Below, in pieces: positions 18,682 to 29,355 of a DNA stretch of 64,000 nt. Origin of the DNA: an uncultured Clostridia bacterium (GTDB lineage: Bacteria > Bacillota > Clostridia > TANB77 > CAG-508). Under the pieces are notes generated by a model. That model was not told where the DNA came from, did not search any database, and was given only the letters and a program-made list of their open reading frames with translations. The stretch spans positions 10,350 to 74,349 of the forward strand of contig CALXXJ010000001.1 of assembly GCA_944392665.1 (NCBI GenBank), given 5' to 3'. A program made the position numbers and the translations under genes. Each line of letters begins with the position of its first letter. Position 1 is the first letter of the stretch.

Positions 18682-18987
18682 TTATTTAAATGATTCTGCT
18701 AGTGTTGTATTAGCTGTTTCTGTATCTTCATATCCAGTAACAACATTTTTCTTTAAAAATTCTACATATTGATTAATTAAATCATAATAATTTTGGAAAT
18801 AATCTGATGCAAATGAATTGATTGCCTCAATTGTAGCTGTAGCTGCTTCTCCTTTCCATACATTTTCCAAATTTGTAATTGCAGTTTGTGCTTCTTTTAA
18901 ATTTGTTTGTAAATCGTCATTTAATTCTGATAATTTGTTTGCTATTTCTAATACTTGTGCTGTATCAATTTTTATTAAATCTGCCAT
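18682..18987 (-). CDS. WXG100 family protein
   Basis: 101 aa, WKG, C-terminal GYEDTE (YxxxD/E-type signal). Confidence 0.85.
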   Translation of the reverse strand: MADLIKIDTAQVLEIANKLSELNDDLQTNLKEAQTAITNLENVWKGEAATATIEAINSFASDYFQNYYDLINQYVEFLKKNVVTGYEDTETANTTLAESFK

Positions 18988-19038
18988 TAAAAATCATTCC
19001 TTTCTTTTAAATTTATATTTTTACTTTTTCTCTATGTA

Positions 19039-19341
19039 TTATTCACTTAAATTTGCTACTTGTGAAATATTATCTGATCTTCTATCATCATAATTTTGTG
19101 CTTGTGAATTTAAAGTATCACTTGATGATCTTAACTTTTCTACCATTTGATTTAATTTTGTTGATAAATTGTTAATTTTTTCTACATATGCTAAATTGTC
19201 GTCTCCTTGCCATGCTTCTCCCATTGTTCCAGCTTGTTGTAACAAGCTTTTGTAAATTTGTTCAAATGAATCTGCATATTCATTAATTTTTGTTGCCGCA
19301 TCTTTTAATTGTTGTGGCTCAACTGTTATAGATTTTCCCAT
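19039..19341 (-). CDS. WXG100 family protein (EsxA-like)
   Basis: 100 aa, ITVEPQQLKDAA, WQG. Confidence 0.88.
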   Translation of the reverse strand: MGKSITVEPQQLKDAATKINEYADSFEQIYKSLLQQAGTMGEAWQGDDNLAYVEKINNLSTKLNQMVEKLRSSSDTLNSQAQNYDDRRSDNISQVANLSE

Positions 19342-19379: not shown

Positions 19380-19631
19380 TTATATTATCATAATTTTACA
19401 ACCATTGTCAATATTTTCCTCAAATACATGTGCATTTTTGTCATATTCTTTTCCAGTAGAGAAATCACATAAGATGACCTCTCTACCTTTTCTATATTTA
19501 TTATCTGCCAAGTCACTGATTGCACTTGCTAATAATTCTGCTACTTCTGAAATTTTACTTTCTAATGGAATATATGCATCATAGGTAAGATTGGCTGATG
19601 GAACATATACTTCAACTAATACTTTATTCAT
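19380..19631 (-). CDS. esaB: EsaB/YukD ubiquitin-like T7SS protein
   Basis: 83 aa, VEVYVP..YDAYIP, IDNGCKIMII, immediately after essC. Confidence 0.75.
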   Translation of the reverse strand: MNKVLVEVYVPSANLTYDAYIPLESKISEVAELLASAISDLADNKYRKGREVILCDFSTGKEYDKNAHVFEENIDNGCKIMII

Positions 19632-22600
19632 CTAATTGCTCCTCCTCCGTATTTAGTATTTTTATGATTTTTGCATTTCCTTTATCTATTGCAATTGCAA
19701 AATTAAGATCTGTTATATCTTTCTTTAATTCACCTTTGTTATTAGAAACCCTAAATGTATATTGATTTGCAAAACCTCTTCCTATCCACATACCATCTTC
19801 TACTTTTACATGTTCTTTATACCATTTTTTGGCTGTCATAATACTAACTTTCTTTACTTCATCAAAAATAATAAAATGTACGTTATAATTTTTTGAACCT
19901 TTTTCTAGTGCTAATTCTAATTTTTCGACTCTTACAGAATCTTTATTATCCAATAATGTTCTAACAGAATTTATGATAAATACCTTTTTATTAAATTCTT
20001 TGCAATTTCTGTTTTCTTCTATAGCAGTCTTATATTCATTATTTCTTTCTAATATTAATTGATATAATTCATCTATCATTTCTTCTGCTTGCTTTCTTCC
20101 TGTTATGTGTTTGATATCTCCATTCAAATCTTGAATTTCATTATCTTCATCAATAACAGCCAATTCCAAATTTTTGTACTGCTCTTGTATAAGATTAGCA
20201 AAATCTTTTGCAAATTGTAAATAGCTTTTATCTTCTGACAAAATTAAATGAATATAATGTTCTTCCAATTTGTAATAACTCATATTTAATGTGTTTTTTT
20301 CCATTCCAATTGGTATATTTAATTTTTCTGTTATATATGGTTTTAAAATTTCTGTTGTTATCTTTTTAGGTAGTACAGCTATTTTATTTGCTTTATATCC
20401 ACTATATTTGTCTGCTATTTTCTTACTTTCTTCTCTAACAAATTTATATGGATTATTATCCTTTACTAATCTTGCTGTCTGGAATTCATAAATATTTTTA
20501 TCAACTTTAATTAATCCTCTACCTTCAAAATGTTGTGGTAAAAGTCCTCCTGTTTTTCCTAAAATCATGGTATAATTTGCTTCATCATTAAATTGTAGAG
20601 CAATGGTTTGCCCGAAATTTTGAATCATTTTATATTTTATTGCATTTGTTCCTGTAGCTGTAATTACAAAATAGATTCCATATTTTGTTCCCTCTCTTGT
20701 TAAATAATTTAAAGCATCTTCTTTATCTGGATAAATTTCTGTAAAAGTAGCATAATTATTGATTGCTACAATAATATTTGGTACACTTTTTCCACTTTCC
20801 TCAATAAATGTTGTATAAGTTCCACCAAAATCAGAAAATTTCTTTTTTCTATTTTCTAATTCTTTGTATAATGTCTTCATTAAATTGGTTACTTTTTCTG
20901 CATCATATGACAAAATAACATCTCCAATATGTGGTGCTTTTTCAAATGCTTTTAAAGTTTCTGCTTCAAAATCTAATATATATATATTTACTTCTTCTGG
21001 TGTATGTTGTTTAATAATTGAATAAATCATTGTTGTTAATAGCATTGCTTTTCCACTACCTTGTGAACCATATATTAATGTATTTCCTTTTTGTGAAATT
21101 GGAATTCTTAAATAATTTTGTTTTTGATGTACTGGGTCATCATATTCCCCTATAATTGGTTTTATATTATATTTTTCCTCTGTTGTGAAATATTTATCTT
21201 CTACCTCTTGCAATAATATATCTTCTCTAATTGGTGGTAACCAAATTGGTTTTGCTTTTATATGTTCTTTGGATGCAATATCGCTTAAATATTGGGTAAT
21301 AGCATCCAATTGTTTTGGTGCTTTTCCAGAATAATTTCTATTTTTATTCAATTTTACTTCTTTTAATACTCTAGCATTATTATCAATTACAACTACACTA
21401 TCATCTTTTTCTTTCACATATTTATCTTGTGGGTAATATGGTGCACCAGACCAAGCAGATTGTCCTAATTCAAACAATTCATTATATCCTACTTGTAAAT
21501 AAAATCTTCCTGTTTCTTTAAGCATTGCCGCATCTGGTCGTTTCAACATATCCATACTATCAGCTTTTTCTTGAACTTTTAGACAAATTCTAAATTTAGA
21601 ATTACTCCAAATTTGGTCATCAACTACTCCGTTTGGTTTCTGGGTTGCCAAGATTAAATGGATTCCTAAACTTCTTCCTATTCTTGCTGTACTAACCAAT
21701 TCTTTCATAAATTCAGGCTGCTGATTTTTTAATTCTGCAAACTCATCTGAAATGATAAATAAATGTGGTAGAGGTTCTGTTACTTGATTTTCTCTATATA
21801 ATCTTTGATATTTGTAAATATCAATATTACTAACACCTATTTTCTTACTTGTTGCATCAAATATAGCTTGTCTTCTCTTCAATTCACTATTAATAGAAAT
21901 TAATGCTCTATTAATAGAAGCACCATCTAAATTTGTAATTATTCCAGCCACATGTGGTAAATGCTCAAATGATTTTGCCATTCCTCCACCTTTATAATCT
22001 ATTAATATAAAGGCAACTTCGTTTGGATGATAGTTTACAGCTAATGATAATATATATGTAATAATAAATTCAGATTTACCACTTCCAGTCATTCCAGCTA
22101 CTAATCCATGAGGTCCGTGAAATTTTTCATGTAAATCTAATTTGAATAATTCTCCATATGTATCAATTCCAATTGGTGTTGCCAAACTTTTTGTAGGGTC
22201 ATTTTCTTCCCAGCGATTAATTACATTTAAATGTTCTATTTTTCCTACTTGGAACATTTGCAAAAAGTTTATCATGTTTGGTAATTTAAATCCACTTTCC
22301 AACGTATTTAATGGAATGTTAGCTAATTTTTTACTTAGTTTATTTGGATCTGCTGTTAAATATATATCTGGCTTAAATGGTATATAATTTCCTGATATAT
22401 CGTTTTTATCATATATTTTGGCTTCTTTTTCATGTACCTCTACAACTGCTGAACATTCTTTAGGTAGTTCTTGTAAGTCTTTTACAAAGTTGATGACACT
22501 AATATTTAAATTTTTCTTTTTACTATATATTTGATTAAGCATTTCAGACTTTAATGCTAAATCTTTATCTAGTGCAAATATAACATAATAAGGTAAAATT

Positions 22601-24216
22601 TCTTCTTTTTCTGAATCATTCATTTGTATACGATTCATAATTTCGGTATCCAAGTAATAAGATATTTCTTTTACTTCTTCTAAATTTGTAGCTATAAATC
22701 TAAATTTTTTATCATTGCTGAATGTGTGTGGTAACCATTTTACAAATTGAAAATCATCTTTTTCTTTTTGATTATATAAAAATATCATTTTAACTTCATC
22801 ATAACTATATAATGCTGCTAATTGGAAAATTAAGCCTTTTGCTAGTTCTATAACCTGTTTTCTATCCCCAATCACACCAGAAATATATTCTTCAAACAAA
22901 GATATCGTAATTGGTACATTGTCTAGAATCTTTGGTTTTTCACATATTTCATACATATTTTCTAATAATCGATCTTCTTTAAGTGAAAATTTACGTTCAA
23001 CATATTTTATTTCAGCATCTAATGGCAAATTTCCTATTCCTAATCTAAGTTTTAGAAAATCATTTTGCCATAAACCTCTTTCCCATAAAGTTCTTCTTTT
23101 CTTTAAAATTCTATCCTCACATTCATCTATTGTTGCAAAATTTTCTTTTAAAATCCTCTTCTGTTTTTCTTCTTCTTCTTTGATTTCATTTTCTATATCT
23201 GTTAAATATTGCGTATATTTTGTTAGTCGCAGTTTTTCTATTTTTTTTCGCATTCTTCTTTCATATAATCTTGTCATTAATGGCCATAATAAAGTTCCTA
23301 AGAGCATACTAACTGACATAACAATTGATGGCATATATGATTGAAAATTTTTAGAATTTACTGCATTATTAATAGTAAATGCAGCTGTTGTTAAAGAAGC
23401 TAATCCCATCGTAACAGATGGACCTATCGTCAATGCCATTGGTAATCGTTGATTATCTGCATTTTCTGGAGGTTCATCTATTTTAAACATAGCAGTTTTT
23501 ATATCTCTTTTAAATCTAGGTGAACGATAAAAATATTCCTTTTTTATATCTTCTTCATCAAAATCATCCTCTTCATCATCCATATCATTTTTTTCTTTGA
23601 AAGGTAACACTTCAGGTTCCCTTTCAAAGATTCCATCCTTGATTGTTACTAAATTATCTGGATTATTAATCATAACAAAATCATAAAATACAATAATCTT
23701 TAATCCCATAATATAGATGACATCACCAAATTCTAAATCTTTTGCTTTTTCTTTTCTTCCATTAATAAAAACACCATTTGTACTTTGATTATCTTTAATA
23801 ATCCAATATTTATTTCTATAGATTAATATAGCATGTGAAGAAGATACAAAATTGTTTTTAAAGCAAATTTCATTTGTCTCATTTCTACCAATTGATATTT
23901 CAATATCTTTATCTATTTTTAATTTTGTATATGTTTGTCTATCTTCTGTTAATTTTTCTGTAAATATAGAGGCAAATTCTTCTCCAATTTTAACGGTATA
24001 CATATCATTTTCTTTTAGTTCTACTTCTCTTATTTTTTCTTTATTTTCATTTAGTATTTGTGCTTTTCTATTGGATGTCATTATCCATTTATTGTCGAGT
24101 CCTTCAATACTGATGAGTTGTTTTTTTTCCTCTACCTCAATCCAAAATTGTCCTTCTATTTTTTCTGGTAACGTTAAAGTATTTATTATATCTTTATATA
24201 TTAATGTTACTATCAT
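19624..24216 (-). CDS. essC: T7SS FtsK/SpoIIIE ATPase EssC/YukB with N-terminal FHA domain
   Basis: FHA motifs, two TM helices, GPHGLVAGMTGSGKSE, IISDEFAELK, GRSLGIHLILATQKP, second Walker A GSQGSGK, degenerate third domain. Confidence 0.95.
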   Translation of the reverse strand: MIVTLIYKDIINTLTLPEKIEGQFWIEVEEKKQLISIEGLDNKWIMTSNRKAQILNENKEKIREVELKENDMYTVKIGEEFASIFTEKLTEDRQTYTKLKIDKDIEISIGRNETNEICFKNNFVSSSHAILIYRNKYWIIKDNQSTNGVFINGRKEKAKDLEFGDVIYIMGLKIIVFYDFVMINNPDNLVTIKDGIFEREPEVLPFKEKNDMDDEEDDFDEEDIKKEYFYRSPRFKRDIKTAMFKIDEPPENADNQRLPMALTIGPSVTMGLASLTTAAFTINNAVNSKNFQSYMPSIVMSVSMLLGTLLWPLMTRLYERRMRKKIEKLRLTKYTQYLTDIENEIKEEEEKQKRILKENFATIDECEDRILKKRRTLWERGLWQNDFLKLRLGIGNLPLDAEIKYVERKFSLKEDRLLENMYEICEKPKILDNVPITISLFEEYISGVIGDRKQVIELAKGLIFQLAALYSYDEVKMIFLYNQKEKDDFQFVKWLPHTFSNDKKFRFIATNLEEVKEISYYLDTEIMNRIQMNDSEKEEILPYYVIFALDKDLALKSEMLNQIYSKKKNLNISVINFVKDLQELPKECSAVVEVHEKEAKIYDKNDISGNYIPFKPDIYLTADPNKLSKKLANIPLNTLESGFKLPNMINFLQMFQVGKIEHLNVINRWEENDPTKSLATPIGIDTYGELFKLDLHEKFHGPHGLVAGMTGSGKSEFIITYILSLAVNYHPNEVAFILIDYKGGGMAKSFEHLPHVAGIITNLDGASINRALISINSELKRRQAIFDATSKKIGVSNIDIYKYQRLYRENQVTEPLPHLFIISDEFAELKNQQPEFMKELVSTARIGRSLGIHLILATQKPNGVVDDQIWSNSKFRICLKVQEKADSMDMLKRPDAAMLKETGRFYLQVGYNELFELGQSAWSGAPYYPQDKYVKEKDDSVVVIDNNARVLKEVKLNKNRNYSGKAPKQLDAITQYLSDIASKEHIKAKPIWLPPIREDILLQEVEDKYFTTEEKYNIKPIIGEYDDPVHQKQNYLRIPISQKGNTLIYGSQGSGKAMLLTTMIYSIIKQHTPEEVNIYILDFEAETLKAFEKAPHIGDVILSYDAEKVTNLMKTLYKELENRKKKFSDFGGTYTTFIEESGKSVPNIIVAINNYATFTEIYPDKEDALNYLTREGTKYGIYFVITATGTNAIKYKMIQNFGQTIALQFNDEANYTMILGKTGGLLPQHFEGRGLIKVDKNIYEFQTARLVKDNNPYKFVREESKKIADKYSGYKANKIAVLPKKITTEILKPYITEKLNIPIGMEKNTLNMSYYKLEEHYIHLILSEDKSYLQFAKDFANLIQEQYKNLELAVIDEDNEIQDLNGDIKHITGRKQAEEMIDELYQLILERNNEYKTAIEENRNCKEFNKKVFIINSVRTLLDNKDSVRVEKLELALEKGSKNYNVHFIIFDEVKKVSIMTAKKWYKEHVKVEDGMWIGRGFANQYTFRVSNNKGELKKDITDLNFAIAIDKGNAKIIKILNTEEEQLDE

Positions 24217-24225
24217 TTTTTCCTC

Positions 24226-26796
24226 CTATCGTTCAATCATATGATCTAATATATATACTGCATCTAATGAATTTAGTGCTCCATCACTATTGACATCTCC
24301 TCTCAACATTCGTTCTTCTGTCAACTCTGCATTGCTCATATACCACTTTAGTATCATATCTGAATCTGCACTGGTAATTTTTCCATCTGCATTAACATCA
24401 CCTTTTATGTATACAGTAACAGGATAACTCGTCTGTATATTCGTTCCTTCAATTGTCACAGTAATATTTGTAGTTCCAGAACTTACTGCCACAAAATATC
24501 CATCTTGAGCAATTCTTCCTGCTGATGGATTACTACTTGACCATTTTAAACCAGATATTTGTGCATTGGCAGGATTCACATTTGCTGAAAAATAATAAGA
24601 ACTGCCTTTTCGTACATATCTCGCTTTATTACCCATTGTAATTGAAGTTGGAGATATCACTGTTGGAGCTTGTGGTGTTTGTGGTGTTGATTGCGCTGAT
24701 TGTGTTGTTCCTGTAGTTGTTGATGTTGTTGGCTTTTCATTGGTTGTCTCTTTGTTTGTCGTTGTTGTATTTTTCTTTTGTTGTTCTTCTTCGTCGTCTT
24801 CTTCTTTTCCTAAACTTACTAATAATTCGATAACAGAATTTTTATTTACTTCTTCTCCTTCTGGTGTCATTTGGCTTATGATATTTCCTTGTTCTACATC
24901 ATCACTATTTTGTTCTGTCACATTTACTTGTAATCCTAGTTCAGCTAATTTTTGTGTTGCTTCTTCTATATTCATTCCTACGACATTTATCATTGTTACT
25001 TTTTCTTTTGATACTGCTACCTTTATCGTAATACTACTTCCTTTGGATACTTCTTGATTTTCTTCTATTGATTGTTCTAAGACTTTTCCCACTTGAGTTT
25101 CATCATCAACTTCTACATATTCATATTGCACTTCTAATCCCAATTCATTAATTTTTTGTGTTGCTTCTTCACTTGTTAATCCAACTAATTGTACCATTTT
25201 TACATATTCTATTTGTGCTACTTCTTCTGATTTATTTAATTGTGAAATACCTACAATCCCTAATGCAAGTATAATAATTGCTATAAAAACAATTATTTTA
25301 ATTCTATGTTTTTTTAATTTTATCCAGATTGGATTTTTTATTTTTTCTTCTTTTTTTACATTTTCTTTTTCTTTATTACTTTTTACTTTTTTCTTTTGGT
25401 TTTCTTGTTCCTCTTTATTCTGTTTTATTTTCTTCTCTTTTTTATTTTTCTTTTTATCTTGTTTTGCATTTTCCTTTTGTTCTGCTACTGGTTCTTGTTC
25501 TATTGCTTCTTCATTTTTTGTAGCCTTTCCTGTTTGTTCTACTGTTTCTTCTGTTTTTAAGTTTTCTTCTGATTGTTCTCCTATTTCTAGAACTTTCTCC
25601 TGCTCAACTGGTTCTATAATATTTTCTATTTTCTCTGTTACTGATTCTTTCTTATTTTGTTCTTCTATTTCTTGAAGTATCTGTTCAGTTTCTTTTGGAT
25701 TTTCAAGACCGATTCCTACTGTCATATCTAATGCTTCTTTTGGTTGTGTATCTTCAAATACACTTAATGTTCCACTATGGCTATCTGATTTTGTATTTTC
25801 CAAAAATATTTTATTCATTTGTTTCTCATTAAAATCAAACAATATTCTTAGTTTCTTTATTTTATTATATTCTTCTTGTAACGCTTCTTTTAGTTCTGTT
25901 GCATTTGCATACCTATCTTTTGGATAATAACTACATGCTTTTAATATAATTTCTGCAATTTCTCTTGGCGCATTCTTAGGGCTTTTTAATTTTTCTCCTG
26001 ATATTCTTTTATATAAAGCTTCTTCTCTTGCATCCACCGTAATTTTTTCTGGGTAATCTGGAAGGAATGGCAATCTATTATAGTTGAAATATCTATATAA
26101 CATAATTCCTAGAGAATAAATATCAACTGTTTTATTTCCTTTTTCATTTTTGTATAACTCTGGTGCCATATAGTTTTCTGTTCCTTTCTTAGACATGTTG
26201 GATACAGTGCTTTCAATATGTTTCGCTATTCCAAAATCGCCTACTTTATACACACCTTTGCCATTCACAAAAATATTATCTGGTTTTATATCTCTATGAA
26301 TGACATCTTTTGCTTCGCAATCTTCTAATGCTGTTGCTACATCAATTGCCATTTTTAACATTTCTTTATCTGTGATATTTTTTTCAAGTACATAGGCATC
26401 TATATTTTTTAATAGTTCCATTTTAATATTAATTATCCAACCAATTTCATTTTTCTTCTTGATAATTTCATAATCTTCTATAGTAACTATATTTTCACTA
26501 TCTTTAAATATAGACATAAATTTTACTTCTTCTACCCATTTTTGCACAGATTTTTCAAAGTAACTTGTGATATCACCTTGTGTCATTCCCTCTGTCTTTA
26601 ATGTCTGGATTTCTGCTTTTGTTTGCGGTATTTCTATTTGTTTGATTGCTGAATAAGTAGAAATTCCAAATTCCTCTTTTTTAGCTTTATATACCTTTCC
26701 ATAAGAACCTTCCCCTATTAATTCTACTTCTTTCCATGTATCATTAAAAAATGTATGCTTTTCCTGTATCTGTTGTTTCTTTTTCTTTCCTAACAT
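24226..26796 (-). CDS. Transmembrane Ser/Thr kinase with 2 PASTA, Ig-like (Big_2) and dockerin domains
   Basis: GEGSYG, HRDIKPDN, DFG, YMAPE; VGLT/VGMN PASTA repeats; WSSSNPS Ig motif; GDVNADGKITSAD...GDVNSDGALNSLD. Confidence 0.9.
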   Translation of the reverse strand: MLGKKKKQQIQEKHTFFNDTWKEVELIGEGSYGKVYKAKKEEFGISTYSAIKQIEIPQTKAEIQTLKTEGMTQGDITSYFEKSVQKWVEEVKFMSIFKDSENIVTIEDYEIIKKKNEIGWIINIKMELLKNIDAYVLEKNITDKEMLKMAIDVATALEDCEAKDVIHRDIKPDNIFVNGKGVYKVGDFGIAKHIESTVSNMSKKGTENYMAPELYKNEKGNKTVDIYSLGIMLYRYFNYNRLPFLPDYPEKITVDAREEALYKRISGEKLKSPKNAPREIAEIILKACSYYPKDRYANATELKEALQEEYNKIKKLRILFDFNEKQMNKIFLENTKSDSHSGTLSVFEDTQPKEALDMTVGIGLENPKETEQILQEIEEQNKKESVTEKIENIIEPVEQEKVLEIGEQSEENLKTEETVEQTGKATKNEEAIEQEPVAEQKENAKQDKKKNKKEKKIKQNKEEQENQKKKVKSNKEKENVKKEEKIKNPIWIKLKKHRIKIIVFIAIIILALGIVGISQLNKSEEVAQIEYVKMVQLVGLTSEEATQKINELGLEVQYEYVEVDDETQVGKVLEQSIEENQEVSKGSSITIKVAVSKEKVTMINVVGMNIEEATQKLAELGLQVNVTEQNSDDVEQGNIISQMTPEGEEVNKNSVIELLVSLGKEEDDEEEQQKKNTTTTNKETTNEKPTTSTTTGTTQSAQSTPQTPQAPTVISPTSITMGNKARYVRKGSSYYFSANVNPANAQISGLKWSSSNPSAGRIAQDGYFVAVSSGTTNITVTIEGTNIQTSYPVTVYIKGDVNADGKITSADSDMILKWYMSNAELTEERMLRGDVNSDGALNSLDAVYILDHMIER
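24848..25357. repeat. ~510-bp near-identical direct repeat shared with ~27502-28010 (TM plus PASTA region of kinases 1 and 2)
   Basis: Translations identical over ~165 aa except one residue (GNIISQ vs GIIISQ); boundaries approximate. Confidence 0.85.
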
Positions 26797-26843
26797 CTCT
26801 TTTCCTTTCCTTTACTATATCAACCAACAATTTTCTTTTTATT

Positions 26844-29342
26844 TTATCCATATCTAAGCTTATCCATTAATAATGCTGCATCATTTGCATTGATTGCTCC
26901 ATTTCCATCCATATCTGCTCTATTCTTTAAATCTTCTGTTAGTTCAACATCATACTTATACATATTTAAAATATAATCAGAATCTTGATAACTGATAACC
27001 CCATCATTATTAGCATCACCCTTACCCAATGATGTCGTAACAGTTAATGTGAACGAATCTGTTATATTTGTATTTTTGATTGTTACTGTTATTGTAGTTG
27101 TTCCAGTTGATTTAGCTGTTATTACACCACTTTGATTGATTGTTGCAACACTTGTATTACTACTAGACCAAACTAAAGTCTTATCTGTTACATTTGTTAC
27201 TTTCATTTCTGCTGACGTTTGAGCTGTTCTTGTCTTATTGATATTTATGTATCTTACAATTTTTGCTGATATTCTTCCTGACGGTGTTGCTTGTACTGGC
27301 TGTTCTACTGGTTGTTCCTCTGGTTGTTGTGTTGTCTCCGGTATAATAGTTTGCGTTGATGTTTCCGTTTGTGTTGGCACTGTTTCTACTGATGCCGGCG
27401 TGCTTTGCTCATTTAGTTTATCCTGAGTACTTTTTGAATCCTCTTCCTCTTCTTTCTCTTTTCCTATACTAATTAACAACTCTACTGTTGTACCTATATT
27501 CACTTCTTCTCCTTCTGGAGTCATTTGACTTATGATGATTCCTTGTTCTACATCATCACTATTTTGTTCTGTCACATTTACTTGTAATCCTAGTTCAGCT
27601 AATTTTTGTGTTGCTTCTTCTATATTCATTCCTACGACATTTATCATTGTTACTTTTTCTTTTGATACTGCTACCTTTATCGTAATACTACTTCCTTTGG
27701 ATACTTCTTGATTTTCTTCTATTGATTGTTCTAAGACTTTTCCCACTTGAGTTTCATCATCAACTTCTACATATTCATATTGCACTTCTAATCCCAATTC
27801 ATTAATTTTTTGTGTTGCTTCTTCACTTGTTAATCCAACTAATTGTACCATTTTTACATATTCTATTTGTGCTACTTCTTCTGATTTATTTAATTGTGAA
27901 ATACCTACAATCCCTAATGCAAGTATAATAATTGCTATAAAAACAATTATTTTAATTCTATGTTTTTTTAATTTTATCCAGATTGGATTTTTTATTTTTT
28001 CTTCTTTTTTTGCATTTTCCTTTTGTTCTACTGCTGGTTCTTTTTCTATTGCTTCTTCATTTTTTGTATCCTCTCCTGTTTTTTCTACTGTTTCTTCTGT
28101 TTTTAAGTTTTCTTCTGCTTGTTCTCCTGTTTCTAAATCTTTCTCCTGTTCAACTGGTTTTATAATATTTTCTATTTTCTCTGTTACTGATTCTTTCTTA
28201 TTTTGTTCTTCTATTGCTTGAAGTATTTGTTCAGTTTCTTTTGGATTTTCAAGACCGATTCCTACTGTCATATCTAATGCTTCTTTTTGTTGTGTATCTT
28301 CAAATACACTTAATGTTCCACTATGGCTATCTGATTTTGTATTTTCCAAAAATATTTTATTCATTTGTTTCTCATTAAAATCAAACAATATTCTTGGTTT
28401 CTTTATTTTATTATATTCTTCTCGTAAAGCTTCTTTTAGTTCCGTGGCATTTGCATACCTATCTTTTGGATAATAACCGCATGACTTTAAAATAATTTCA
28501 GCAATTTCTCTAGAAGCATTTTGTGGAACTGGCATTTTTTCACCAGATATTCTTTTATATAAAGCTTCTTCTCTATCCTCCATTGTTATCTCTTCTGGAT
28601 AATTGGGTAAAAATGGTAATCGGTTATAATTGAAATATCTATATAACATAACACCTAGAGAGTAAATATCAACTGTTTTATTTCCTTTTTCATTTTTGTA
28701 TAACTCTGGTGCCATATAGTTTTCTGTTCCTTTTTTAGACATATTTGATACTGTATTGTCAATATGTTTTGCTATTCCAAAATCTCCTACTTTATAAATA
28801 CCTTTACTATTTACGAAAATATTGTCAGGCTTTATATCTCTATGTATGACATTATTTTCTTCGCAATCTTCTAATGCTGTTGCTACATCAATTGCCATTT
28901 TTAATATTTCTCTATCTGTTAGATTATGTTCTAAAATATATAAATCTAGATTTTGCAATAATTCCATTCTGATATTGATTATCCAACCAATCTCTTTCTT
29001 TTTCTTTAAAATTTCATAATCTTCTATATCAACTATATTTTCACTATCTTTAAATATGGACATAAATTTAATTTCATCTATCCATTTTTGTACTGATTTC
29101 TCATAATATCTTGTAATTCCATCTTGTGTCATTCCTTCTGTTTTTAATGTTTGAATTTCTAATTTTGTTTGTGGTATTTCTATTTGTTTAATAGCTGAAT
29201 AAGTTGTAATTCCAAATTCTTCTTTTTTAGCTTTATATACCTTTCCATAAGAACCTTCACCAATTAATTCTACTTCTTTCCATTGTTCATTAAAAAATGT
29301 ATGTTTTTCCTGTATCTGTTGCTTCTTTTTCTTTCCTAACAT
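26844..29342 (-). CDS. Transmembrane Ser/Thr kinase with 2 PASTA, Ig-like and dockerin domains
   Basis: Same kinase motifs; WSSSNTSVATI; GDANNDGVISYQD...ADMDGNGAINAND. Confidence 0.9.
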   Translation of the reverse strand: MLGKKKKQQIQEKHTFFNEQWKEVELIGEGSYGKVYKAKKEEFGITTYSAIKQIEIPQTKLEIQTLKTEGMTQDGITRYYEKSVQKWIDEIKFMSIFKDSENIVDIEDYEILKKKKEIGWIINIRMELLQNLDLYILEHNLTDREILKMAIDVATALEDCEENNVIHRDIKPDNIFVNSKGIYKVGDFGIAKHIDNTVSNMSKKGTENYMAPELYKNEKGNKTVDIYSLGVMLYRYFNYNRLPFLPNYPEEITMEDREEALYKRISGEKMPVPQNASREIAEIILKSCGYYPKDRYANATELKEALREEYNKIKKPRILFDFNEKQMNKIFLENTKSDSHSGTLSVFEDTQQKEALDMTVGIGLENPKETEQILQAIEEQNKKESVTEKIENIIKPVEQEKDLETGEQAEENLKTEETVEKTGEDTKNEEAIEKEPAVEQKENAKKEEKIKNPIWIKLKKHRIKIIVFIAIIILALGIVGISQLNKSEEVAQIEYVKMVQLVGLTSEEATQKINELGLEVQYEYVEVDDETQVGKVLEQSIEENQEVSKGSSITIKVAVSKEKVTMINVVGMNIEEATQKLAELGLQVNVTEQNSDDVEQGIIISQMTPEGEEVNIGTTVELLISIGKEKEEEEDSKSTQDKLNEQSTPASVETVPTQTETSTQTIIPETTQQPEEQPVEQPVQATPSGRISAKIVRYININKTRTAQTSAEMKVTNVTDKTLVWSSSNTSVATINQSGVITAKSTGTTTITVTIKNTNITDSFTLTVTTSLGKGDANNDGVISYQDSDYILNMYKYDVELTEDLKNRADMDGNGAINANDAALLMDKLRYG

Positions 29343-29355
29343 TTTATTTCCCTTT

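Follow-up and report, generated by a model that had tools for sequence, protein, structure and literature searches.

The window analyzed here is a stretch of 64,000 nucleotides (positions 10350–74349 of contig C1) from the genome of an uncultured Clostridia bacterium, a 1.78-Mb assembly of 77 contigs that is 88% complete. On its minus strand it carries an operon in which three paralogous membrane kinases, two of them tipped with a dockerin, lie between a gene for a PP2C-family Ser/Thr phosphatase and a gene for an EssC-type ATPase of a type VII secretion system (T7SS). The GC content is ~28%, and the closest named relatives are metagenome-assembled genomes labeled 'uncultured Clostridia bacterium', one of which comes from chicken. 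The open reading frames (ORFs) follow one another in the same direction, separated by 9–47 nucleotides, in the order PP2C, kinase 3, kinase 2, kinase 1, EssC and onward. The three kinases, and the domains recognized in kinases 1 and 2, are the following (TM, transmembrane; AF2, AlphaFold2):

29356..31929, minus strand: kinase 3, 857 residues, with a Pkinase domain, a TM helix, two PASTA domains and a non-dockerin tip (Pfam; intact catalytic motifs)
26844..29342, minus strand: kinase 2, 832 residues, with a Pkinase domain, a TM helix, two PASTA domains, a Big_2 domain and a dockerin (Pfam; catalytic motifs)
24226..26796, minus strand: kinase 1, 856 residues, with the same succession of domains as kinase 2 (Pfam; catalytic motifs)
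25882..26733, minus strand: kinase 1 catalytic domain (Pkinase, 1.1e-37), with the G-loop at residue 28, AIK at 50, HRD at 167, DFG at 187 and APE at 211
25243..25296, minus strand: kinase 1 TM helix (IIVFIAIIILALGIVGIS), residues 501–518, a hydrophobic stretch
24805..25200, minus strand: two PASTA domains of kinase 1, extracellular (PASTA, 6.7e-27, two stretches)
24445..24648, minus strand: Big_2 Ig-like domain of kinase 1 (Big_2, 7.1e-09; β-sandwich in the AF2 model; Foldseek matches such as 7QUZ, 1.6e-07)
24229..24405, minus strand: dockerin of kinase 1 (KGDVNADGKITSAD...GDVNSDGALNSLDAVYILDHMIER; Dockerin_1, 35.3 bits, 1.4e-08; three predicted helices)
27066..27239, minus strand: Big_2 Ig-like domain of kinase 2, residues 702–759 (Big_2, 1.2e-10)
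26847..27023, minus strand: dockerin of kinase 2 (KGDANNDGVISYQD...ADMDGNGAINANDAALLMDKLRYG; Dockerin_1, 23.1 bits, 8.5e-05)

The catalytic motifs are intact in all three paralogues, with GEGSYG at residue 28, AIK at 50, HRDIKPDN at 167, DFG at 187 and APE at 211. A long, disordered Lys/Glu-rich segment joins the kinase domain to the single TM helix, and a Thr/Pro/Gln/Glu-rich linker of 50–70 residues separates the PASTA domains from Big_2. [quoted passage not shown] The intact motifs, the single TM helix, the extracellular PASTA repeats and the adjacent PP2C gene are those of the PASTA Hanks kinase class (PknB/PrkC), and the whole arrangement of cytoplasmic kinase, disordered juxtamembrane segment, TM helix, PASTA domains and neighboring phosphatase is shared with PrkC/PrpC of B. 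subtilis, PknB of M. tuberculosis and IreK of E. faecalis. An Ig-like domain is likewise found at the end of PrkC and Stk1. Unlike PrkC, PknB and IreK, kinases 1 and 2 have a dockerin tip; together with kinase 3 they form a tandem of three paralogues with swapped tips and belong to a secretion operon rather than to a housekeeping locus.

The assignment of the last 59 residues of kinases 1 and 2 to the dockerin family relies on profiles, structure databases and models. Both modules score above the Pfam cut-off of 22.9 bits for Dockerin_1 (PF00404). The best match of the kinase 1 module in the PDB is the type I dockerin of C. thermocellum Xyn10B (1OHZ_B), over the full length and with an E-value of 1.1e-06, while the kinase 2 module best matches 2CCL_B and 1OHZ_B, again over the full length (E about 2.6e-07). 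A profile built from 22 kinase C-termini retrieves 1OHZ_B at 5.6e-12, plus dozens of other solved dockerins. Both modules also have the dockerin layout, i.e. two segments of ~22 residues with a spacing of ~33 residues, each made of a calcium loop (D1, N/D3, D/N5, G6, D12) followed by a helix. The loops start at residues 800 and 834 in kinase 1 and at residues 776 and 810 in kinase 2, hence 34 residues apart. A motif scan of 22 homologues placed calcium loops at the extreme C-terminus in all of them and two loops 30–34 residues apart in 21, P0075 having one only, with a degenerate second loop; the alignment of the 22 shows no variation at positions D1, G6 and D12 in either loop. For the kinase 1 tip, the AF2 model (predicted local distance difference test, pLDDT, 94.5) displays an Ig-like β-sandwich followed by three helices (103–115, 121–127 and 137–149). 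Foldseek, run on this Big_2–dockerin model, returned Ig-like domains alone, matched to the Big_2 half, as the 59-residue module is too small and the Big_2 half dominates the ranking. Altogether, sequence comparison and modeling confirm that the tips of kinases 1 and 2 are real type-I-like dockerins, and a chance origin of their dockerin features is excluded. In the precomputed Pfam annotation, the kinase-2-type tips of kinase 2 homologues are labeled PF26918, not PF00404.

Could such a module be a calcium-binding, EF-hand-like sensor or a stabilizing cap that has no cohesin partner? The kinase 2 module does match calmodulin EF-hand pairs with lower scores, which is expected for calcium loops, and many non-cellulosomal dockerins have no known partner. 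We nevertheless regard a partnerless cap as very improbable, because true dockerins are the top full-length matches of both modules, because the loop spacing and the three-helix layout are dockerin-like, and because the same genome encodes cohesins (see below). Several claims of the original prediction for this DNA are borne out by these data: the domain order kinase–PASTA–Big_2–dockerin is found by Pfam in both kinases, the Dockerin_1 profile proposed as a check recognizes both tips, the dockerin peptides that it quoted occur exactly in the translations, and the region that it delimited (24226–27130) does correspond to all of kinase 1 plus the C-terminal ~95 codons of kinase 2. It had also stated that the two dockerins differ, as detailed hereafter.

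The three paralogues are 80–95% identical up to the PASTA domains and 24–38% identical in their tips. Between kinases 1 and 2, identity amounts to 86% in the kinase domain, 91% in the juxtamembrane segment, 95% in the TM helix plus PASTA domains and 38.5% in the tip; the kinase domain of kinase 3 is 80–84% identical to the other two. The tip of kinase 3 is of another type:

29359..29985, minus strand: kinase 3 tip, residues 649–857 (209 residues), a β-rich, extracellular 'WSxWV..LP ... RTLYRYK' domain (conserved across an alignment of 16 homologues; AF2)

This domain starts with WSxWV..LP..V....Y.IE.K.QY, often contains a central CxxCG and ends with YYYYKWSDWS...EVRTRTLYRYK. Its AF2 model (pLDDT 93.2) is characterized by very long β-strands, and neither a PDB sequence search nor a fold search gave a match. 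We considered that it might be a hidden cohesin able to pair with the two kinase dockerins, and rejected this idea because the domain is not cohesin-like and has no sequence or fold match in the PDB.

Three metagenomic proteins, P0006, P0008 and P0009, are natural chimeras in which a kinase 1 body is associated with parts of the other paralogues, namely the short linker of kinase 2, the dockerin tip of kinase 2 or a kinase-3-type tip. Together with the drop in identity at the tips, they point to an exchange of tips on a constant signaling body, and we take these chimeras as evidence of recombination or gene conversion inside the tandem array. The two kinase dockerins are themselves 46% identical and differ at positions 10, 11, 17 and 18 of both segments, which makes different specificities plausible. 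The specificity positions of type I dockerins are known. Positions 17/18 are Leu-Lys and Leu-Asp in kinase 1, and Leu-Asn and Met-Asp in kinase 2. Of the three non-kinase dockerins encoded by the genome, two have Arg-Lys in both segments, and the third (on contig C19) has Gln-Arg in the first segment and an irregular second loop; this comparison, with the differences between the two kinase dockerins, suggests separate specificities. The dockerin of kinase 2 resembles that of P0063 (54% identity) more than that of kinase 1 (46%), and P0063 is 48% identical to kinase 1 over about a third of the latter, which points to dockerin lineages that are old and conserved.

The remaining genes of the operon, upstream and downstream of the kinases, are the following:

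31951..33030, minus strand: PP2C-family Ser/Thr phosphatase, with which the operon begins (PP2C_2, 5.4e-12; PP2C, 2.7e-11)
19624..24216, minus strand: EssC-type T7SS ATPase, 1530 residues, N-terminal FHA domain plus FtsK/SpoIIIE domains (FtsK_SpoIIIE, 3.4e-57; FHA, 2.6e-13)
23710..23898, minus strand: FHA domain of EssC, residues 107–169 (Pfam), with the phosphothreonine-binding residues G-R, S-x-x-H and N-G kept
19380..19631, minus strand: 83-residue ORF placed where the ubiquitin-like T7SS component sits (assigned by position; no Pfam match)
18682..19341, minus strand: two WXG100 genes, at 19039–19341 and 18682–18987 (WXG100, 3.8e-13 and 1.8e-07)

The PP2C gene lies 21 nucleotides upstream of kinase 3. 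Downstream of EssC come the 83-residue ORF, which has its equal in size and position in the related loci L015, L017 and L018, then the two WXG100 genes, a gene for a 375-residue candidate effector and a DUF4176 gene. The 375-residue protein (17307–18434, minus strand) has a weak, sub-threshold match to the pore-forming region of TcdA/TcdB (19.2 bits), and a 339-residue ORF occupies the same place in L015; we regard it as a candidate T7SS substrate with membrane activity. Upstream of PP2C, the genes vary from locus to locus. We also noted that in-frame CGG codons are absent from PP2C, the three kinases and EssC (0 in ~4,400 codons; 19624–33030).

By gene content, the cluster has the core of a kinase-associated T7SS, as it unites an ATPase of the EssC type and WXG100 proteins with a membrane kinase and a PPM phosphatase. 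The system does not have the EssB/YukC that marks a canonical T7SSb (Ess/Yuk): the EssB/YukC profile (PF10140) has no match across the whole genome, at 88% completeness, although the B. subtilis control scored above the family cut-off. Pfam scans of the locus revealed no conserved membrane component other than the kinases and EssC, and the flanking ORFs scanned contain neither a vWA nor a DUF6382-FHA match. Membrane kinases, PPM phosphatases and phosphothreonine-competent FHA domains have been described in T7SS subtypes c, d and e, for which phospho-control was suggested (Garrett and Palmer 2024, PMC11217815) and in which the topology of the kinase was compared with that of EssB (PMC11217815). 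The locus shares with T7SSc/d/e a membrane Ser/Thr kinase with an active cytoplasmic domain, a PPM phosphatase, an EssC-type ATPase with an FHA domain in which the phosphothreonine site is kept, WXG100 proteins and the absence of EssB. The ectodomains differ, being helical in the T7SSc/d/e kinases and of the PASTA–Big_2–dockerin type in the window, and the text of that paper mentions neither PASTA nor dockerin (PMC11217815). In the conserved part of the locus, we saw none of the additional components of T7SSc and T7SSe (TscE, a vWA protein, and TscG; TseH, TseI, TseJ and TseK).

To describe the distribution of the tips, we classified 123 sequences, i.e. the best 120 database homologues plus the three kinases of the window. 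A full double-loop dockerin is present at the C-terminus in 42, a truncated or degenerate dockerin in 4 and a kinase-3-type tip in 26, the remainder resembling ordinary PASTA kinases. The source name mentions dockerin for none of the homologues listed. No close homologue of the kinases was found in 150 further genomes from this GTDB family, same-genus species included, where the best matches are kinases of ~660 residues with ~35% identity, indicating that the locus is sporadic in the family. A scan of genome contigs identified two GTDB relatives that carry the locus, one of them without dockerins; in L009, a relative with the same locus, there are two kinases and neither has a dockerin, so this module is not essential to the system.

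The gene context is more constant. PP2C, one or several kinases and an FHA-bearing EssC occur together in four other divergent contexts (L015/16, L017, L018 and L019), and are followed by the small ORF and the WXG100 genes wherever the contig extends, L019 stopping inside EssC. In two more distant loci, L020 (whose kinase shows 37% identity) and L021, the dockerin kinase and PP2C adjoin an ABC transporter fused to an FHA domain (~775 residues; L020:4147–6471 and L021:9376–11715) that replaces EssC. The kinase–PP2C–FHA cassette would thus serve at least two kinds of exporter. The situation in L020 and L021, where the ABC protein has its FHA domain at the N-terminus, resembles that of PknF and the FHA-ABC transporter Rv1747 in M. 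tuberculosis, a member of another phylum. PknF is not known to have a dockerin or a PASTA domain. In all seven contexts examined, the kinases are linked to an FHA-bearing exporter; from the sequence data, the constant theme is a kinase, a PP2C and an FHA-bearing membrane exporter, the dockerin being a frequent but optional tip.

These comparisons qualify two points of the original prediction. The coupling of the kinases to a T7SS stands insofar as they are operonic with PP2C and with FHA-EssC/WXG100, an association that recurs in four contexts, but it is not exclusive, given the FHA-ABC transporters of L020 and L021. Likewise, the database search for the kinase–PASTA–Big_2–dockerin architecture that it called for supports the linkage with an FHA-bearing exporter, which holds in seven contexts out of seven, but not a general presence of the dockerin, which is double-looped in 42 sequences out of 123 and missing from L009. 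The same comparisons bear on the idea that these are ordinary housekeeping PASTA kinases, devoted to growth and division and located near a T7SS by accident. A PASTA kinase next to a PP2C is indeed the standard PrkC/PrpC pairing. However, contig C51 carries a separate, housekeeping-like (PrkC-like) PASTA kinase gene (27% identity), none of the 150 other family genomes has a close homologue of the window kinases, and the synteny with FHA-bearing exporters contradicts an accidental vicinity, so that this idea is hardly credible. Together, the missing YukC/EssB and the separate kinase on C51 indicate that the three kinases of the window are dedicated paralogues.

A purely structural role must also be considered. 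The kinases could replace EssB/EsaA as the membrane- and wall-spanning partners of EssC, with the dockerin fastening the machine, at fixed sites, to a cohesin of the wall and no signal being transmitted. Such a role would fit a genome devoid of YukC/EssB and a locus without any other conserved membrane component; moreover, the kinases share their bitopic topology with the EssB pseudokinase, which binds the FHA domains of EssC (PMC11217815), and long linkers with an Ig spacer suit a wall-spanning stalk. Yet every catalytic motif is preserved in full, a PP2C gene adjoins the kinases in all cases, the phosphothreonine-binding residues of FHA are kept, and the same kinase–PP2C pair serves an FHA-ABC transporter elsewhere. 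An intact kinase, an adjacent phosphatase and a competent FHA domain argue for real phospho-signaling, and we consider mere anchoring unlikely.

If the dockerins have partners, these should be cohesins. As proposed in the original prediction, we searched the genome for them and found three proteins with one cohesin each, anchored by a sortase signal or a TM helix:

C19:5115–6170: cohesin anchor 1, with a signal peptide, a cohesin and an LPKTG motif; it adjoins a sortase gene
C60:1024–1860: cohesin anchor 2, with a signal peptide, a cohesin, a PEDP-repeat linker and a TM helix
C19:552–1847: cohesin anchor 3, with a borderline cohesin, Cadherin-like domains and a TM helix

The genome encodes five dockerin proteins, namely two kinases, one SH3/Big_2 protein and two repeat proteins. 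None of the five contains a glycoside hydrolase domain, and the genome has no multi-cohesin scaffoldin; the combination of a multi-cohesin scaffoldin with dockerin-bearing carbohydrate-active enzymes that defines a cellulosome or an amylosome is thus absent. Small single-cohesin proteins (~230–350 residues) are found in 112 of the 151 genomes and 47 of the 50 genera of the family, which consists of gut Clostridia with genomes of 1–1.9 Mb. The cohesin–dockerin set of this genome is, by its gene complement, a surface-display system and not a cellulosome, and non-cellulosomal cohesin–dockerin display looks like a family-wide trait. The original prediction had placed the kinases in a cellulosomal framework, as detectors of neighboring fiber degraders; with no glycoside hydrolase–dockerin protein, anchors that bear a single cohesin and cohesins spread through 112 of the 151 family genomes, this framework finds no support. 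Compared with known cases of non-cellulosomal cohesin–dockerin display, the R. bromii amylosome and the dockerin of 1OHZ, the kinase tips have the same dockerin sequence features and the same predicted fold, and their likely partners are sortase- or TM-anchored single cohesins. In those systems the dockerin carries a secreted enzyme or adhesin, whereas here the cargo is a membrane-anchored signaling kinase.

Two gene clusters outside the window associate cohesins with dockerins. In C19:552–6170, a dockerin-bearing SH3/Big_2 protein is followed by the cohesin–Cadherin-like–TM protein, a sortase and the LPKTG cohesin; in C60:3–1860, a dockerin-bearing repeat protein directly precedes the cohesin–PEDP-linker–TM protein. 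These clusters probably encode cognate display pairs.

Since cohesins are routine in the family and present in this genome, the simplest partner of the kinase dockerins would be a surface cohesin of the same cell or of a relative. One may also imagine strict contact sensing in trans, where free dockerins engage cohesins only on other cells (producers of cellulosomes or amylosomes, or non-kin relatives) and trigger the T7SS at the touching cell. A contact trigger would be logical because T7SS toxins act at short range; cohesin anchors, present in 112 of 151 genomes, are common on the likely neighbors in this family; at the usual specificity positions the kinase dockerins are unlike the three other dockerins of the genome, and need not fit the sockets of the cell itself; and the diversification of the tips resembles the arms-race pattern reported for EsrA (PMC13622651). 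On the other hand, the producer itself displays three cohesins, so that self-binding would have to be avoided, evidence for a cellulosome link is missing (neither glycoside hydrolase–dockerin proteins nor a multi-cohesin scaffoldin), and the kinase-2-type dockerin has been kept (54% identity to that of P0063) while the kinase domains are 48% identical, which would fit a partner that is conserved better than an arms race. We therefore think that sensing exclusively in trans is rather unlikely.

The model that we favor, and whose chances we rate as about even, has the kinase tips docked through their dockerins onto surface-anchored cohesins of the same cell or of neighbors, a link that would gate the control of EssC by threonine phosphorylation. 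In this model, (i) each dockerin would bind a surface-displayed cohesin in the presence of Ca2+, the likeliest partner being one of the three cohesin anchors of the cell or the equivalent anchors of neighboring relatives; (ii) the kinase ectodomain would then bridge the membrane and the wall surface, and the state of the cohesin link, together with the sensing of wall fragments by the PASTA domains, would set kinase activity; (iii) the threonines that the kinase would phosphorylate may belong to its own juxtamembrane segment or to a partner; (iv) the FHA domain of EssC would bind these phosphothreonines, switching on the assembly or firing of the secretion system; and (v) PP2C would set the switch back. 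The three tips, each different, would provide alternative inputs to one output.

This model is drawn by analogy with T7SSs controlled by a kinase and an FHA domain (PMC11217815, PMC13622651). In E. faecalis, IreK is reported to activate T7SS transcription (PMC11217815). In Actinobacteria, the threat-sensing Esr system has been characterized experimentally: a surface sensor with a diversifying tip activates a Ser/Thr kinase, which phosphorylates a threonine of an FHA protein and thereby controls Esx (Wang et al. 2026 preprint, PMC13622651); this control of Esx secretion is partly post-translational, and fusions of the FHA output to EccC exist (PMC13622651). Esr and the locus thus have in common a sensor with a diversifying tip, a Ser/Thr kinase with its phosphatase, a phosphothreonine read by FHA and the control of type VII secretion. 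They differ in that the Esr sensor, found in another phylum, is a separate filament of Ig repeats with a β-propeller tip, accompanied by MoxR, vWA and transglutaminase proteins, whereas here the kinase itself bears the dockerin tip. In the H1-T6SS of P. aeruginosa (PpkA/PppA/Fha1), as in its equivalent in the A. tumefaciens T6SS, a membrane Hanks kinase and a PP2C toggle, by threonine phosphorylation, the FHA-dependent activation of a secretion system that depends on contact (PMC11217815); these belong to Gram-negative bacteria and to another secretion system, and have neither PASTA nor dockerin domains.

Several observations weigh against a cohesin-gated kinase dedicated to EssC. The Dockerin_1 score of kinase 2 barely exceeds the cut-off; in L020 and L021 the dockerin kinase goes with an FHA-ABC transporter instead of EssC; the L009 kinases have no dockerin; Pfam scans found no cohesin gene in or beside any of the seven kinase loci; and these kinases are missing from all of the 150 other family genomes compared, most of which still have cohesins, so that there is no co-occurrence signal between kinases and cohesins. 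The most novel version, in which the cohesin–dockerin pair is a 'handshake' by which a receptor kinase senses cell contact or recognizes kin and fires the T7SS post-translationally, different tips reading different sockets on the cells that touch, seems to us doubtful.

Our literature search retrieved no paper joining dockerins with PASTA/Hanks kinases or with T7SS components: each part of the locus is known and their combination is undescribed. The trigger of type VII secretion in Firmicutes is largely unknown, and the presumed trigger proteins encoded here bear a module whose class of partner, cohesin, is known. This genome offers only three candidate partners, and the interaction lends itself to simple tests in vitro. 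A kinase body that stays constant while its tips are swapped also suggests a sensor of modular design, which others could exploit. If the dockerins do bind surface cohesins, the locus would offer a concrete, tractable model for the phospho-control of a minimal, EssB-less T7SS; if the handshake version is true, nature would for the first time be seen to use the cellulosome connector pair in transmembrane signaling, and a trigger of T7SS firing in Firmicutes would be named. More generally, if the dockerins of these kinases bind surface cohesins, cohesin–dockerin biology would extend from enzyme display to signaling.

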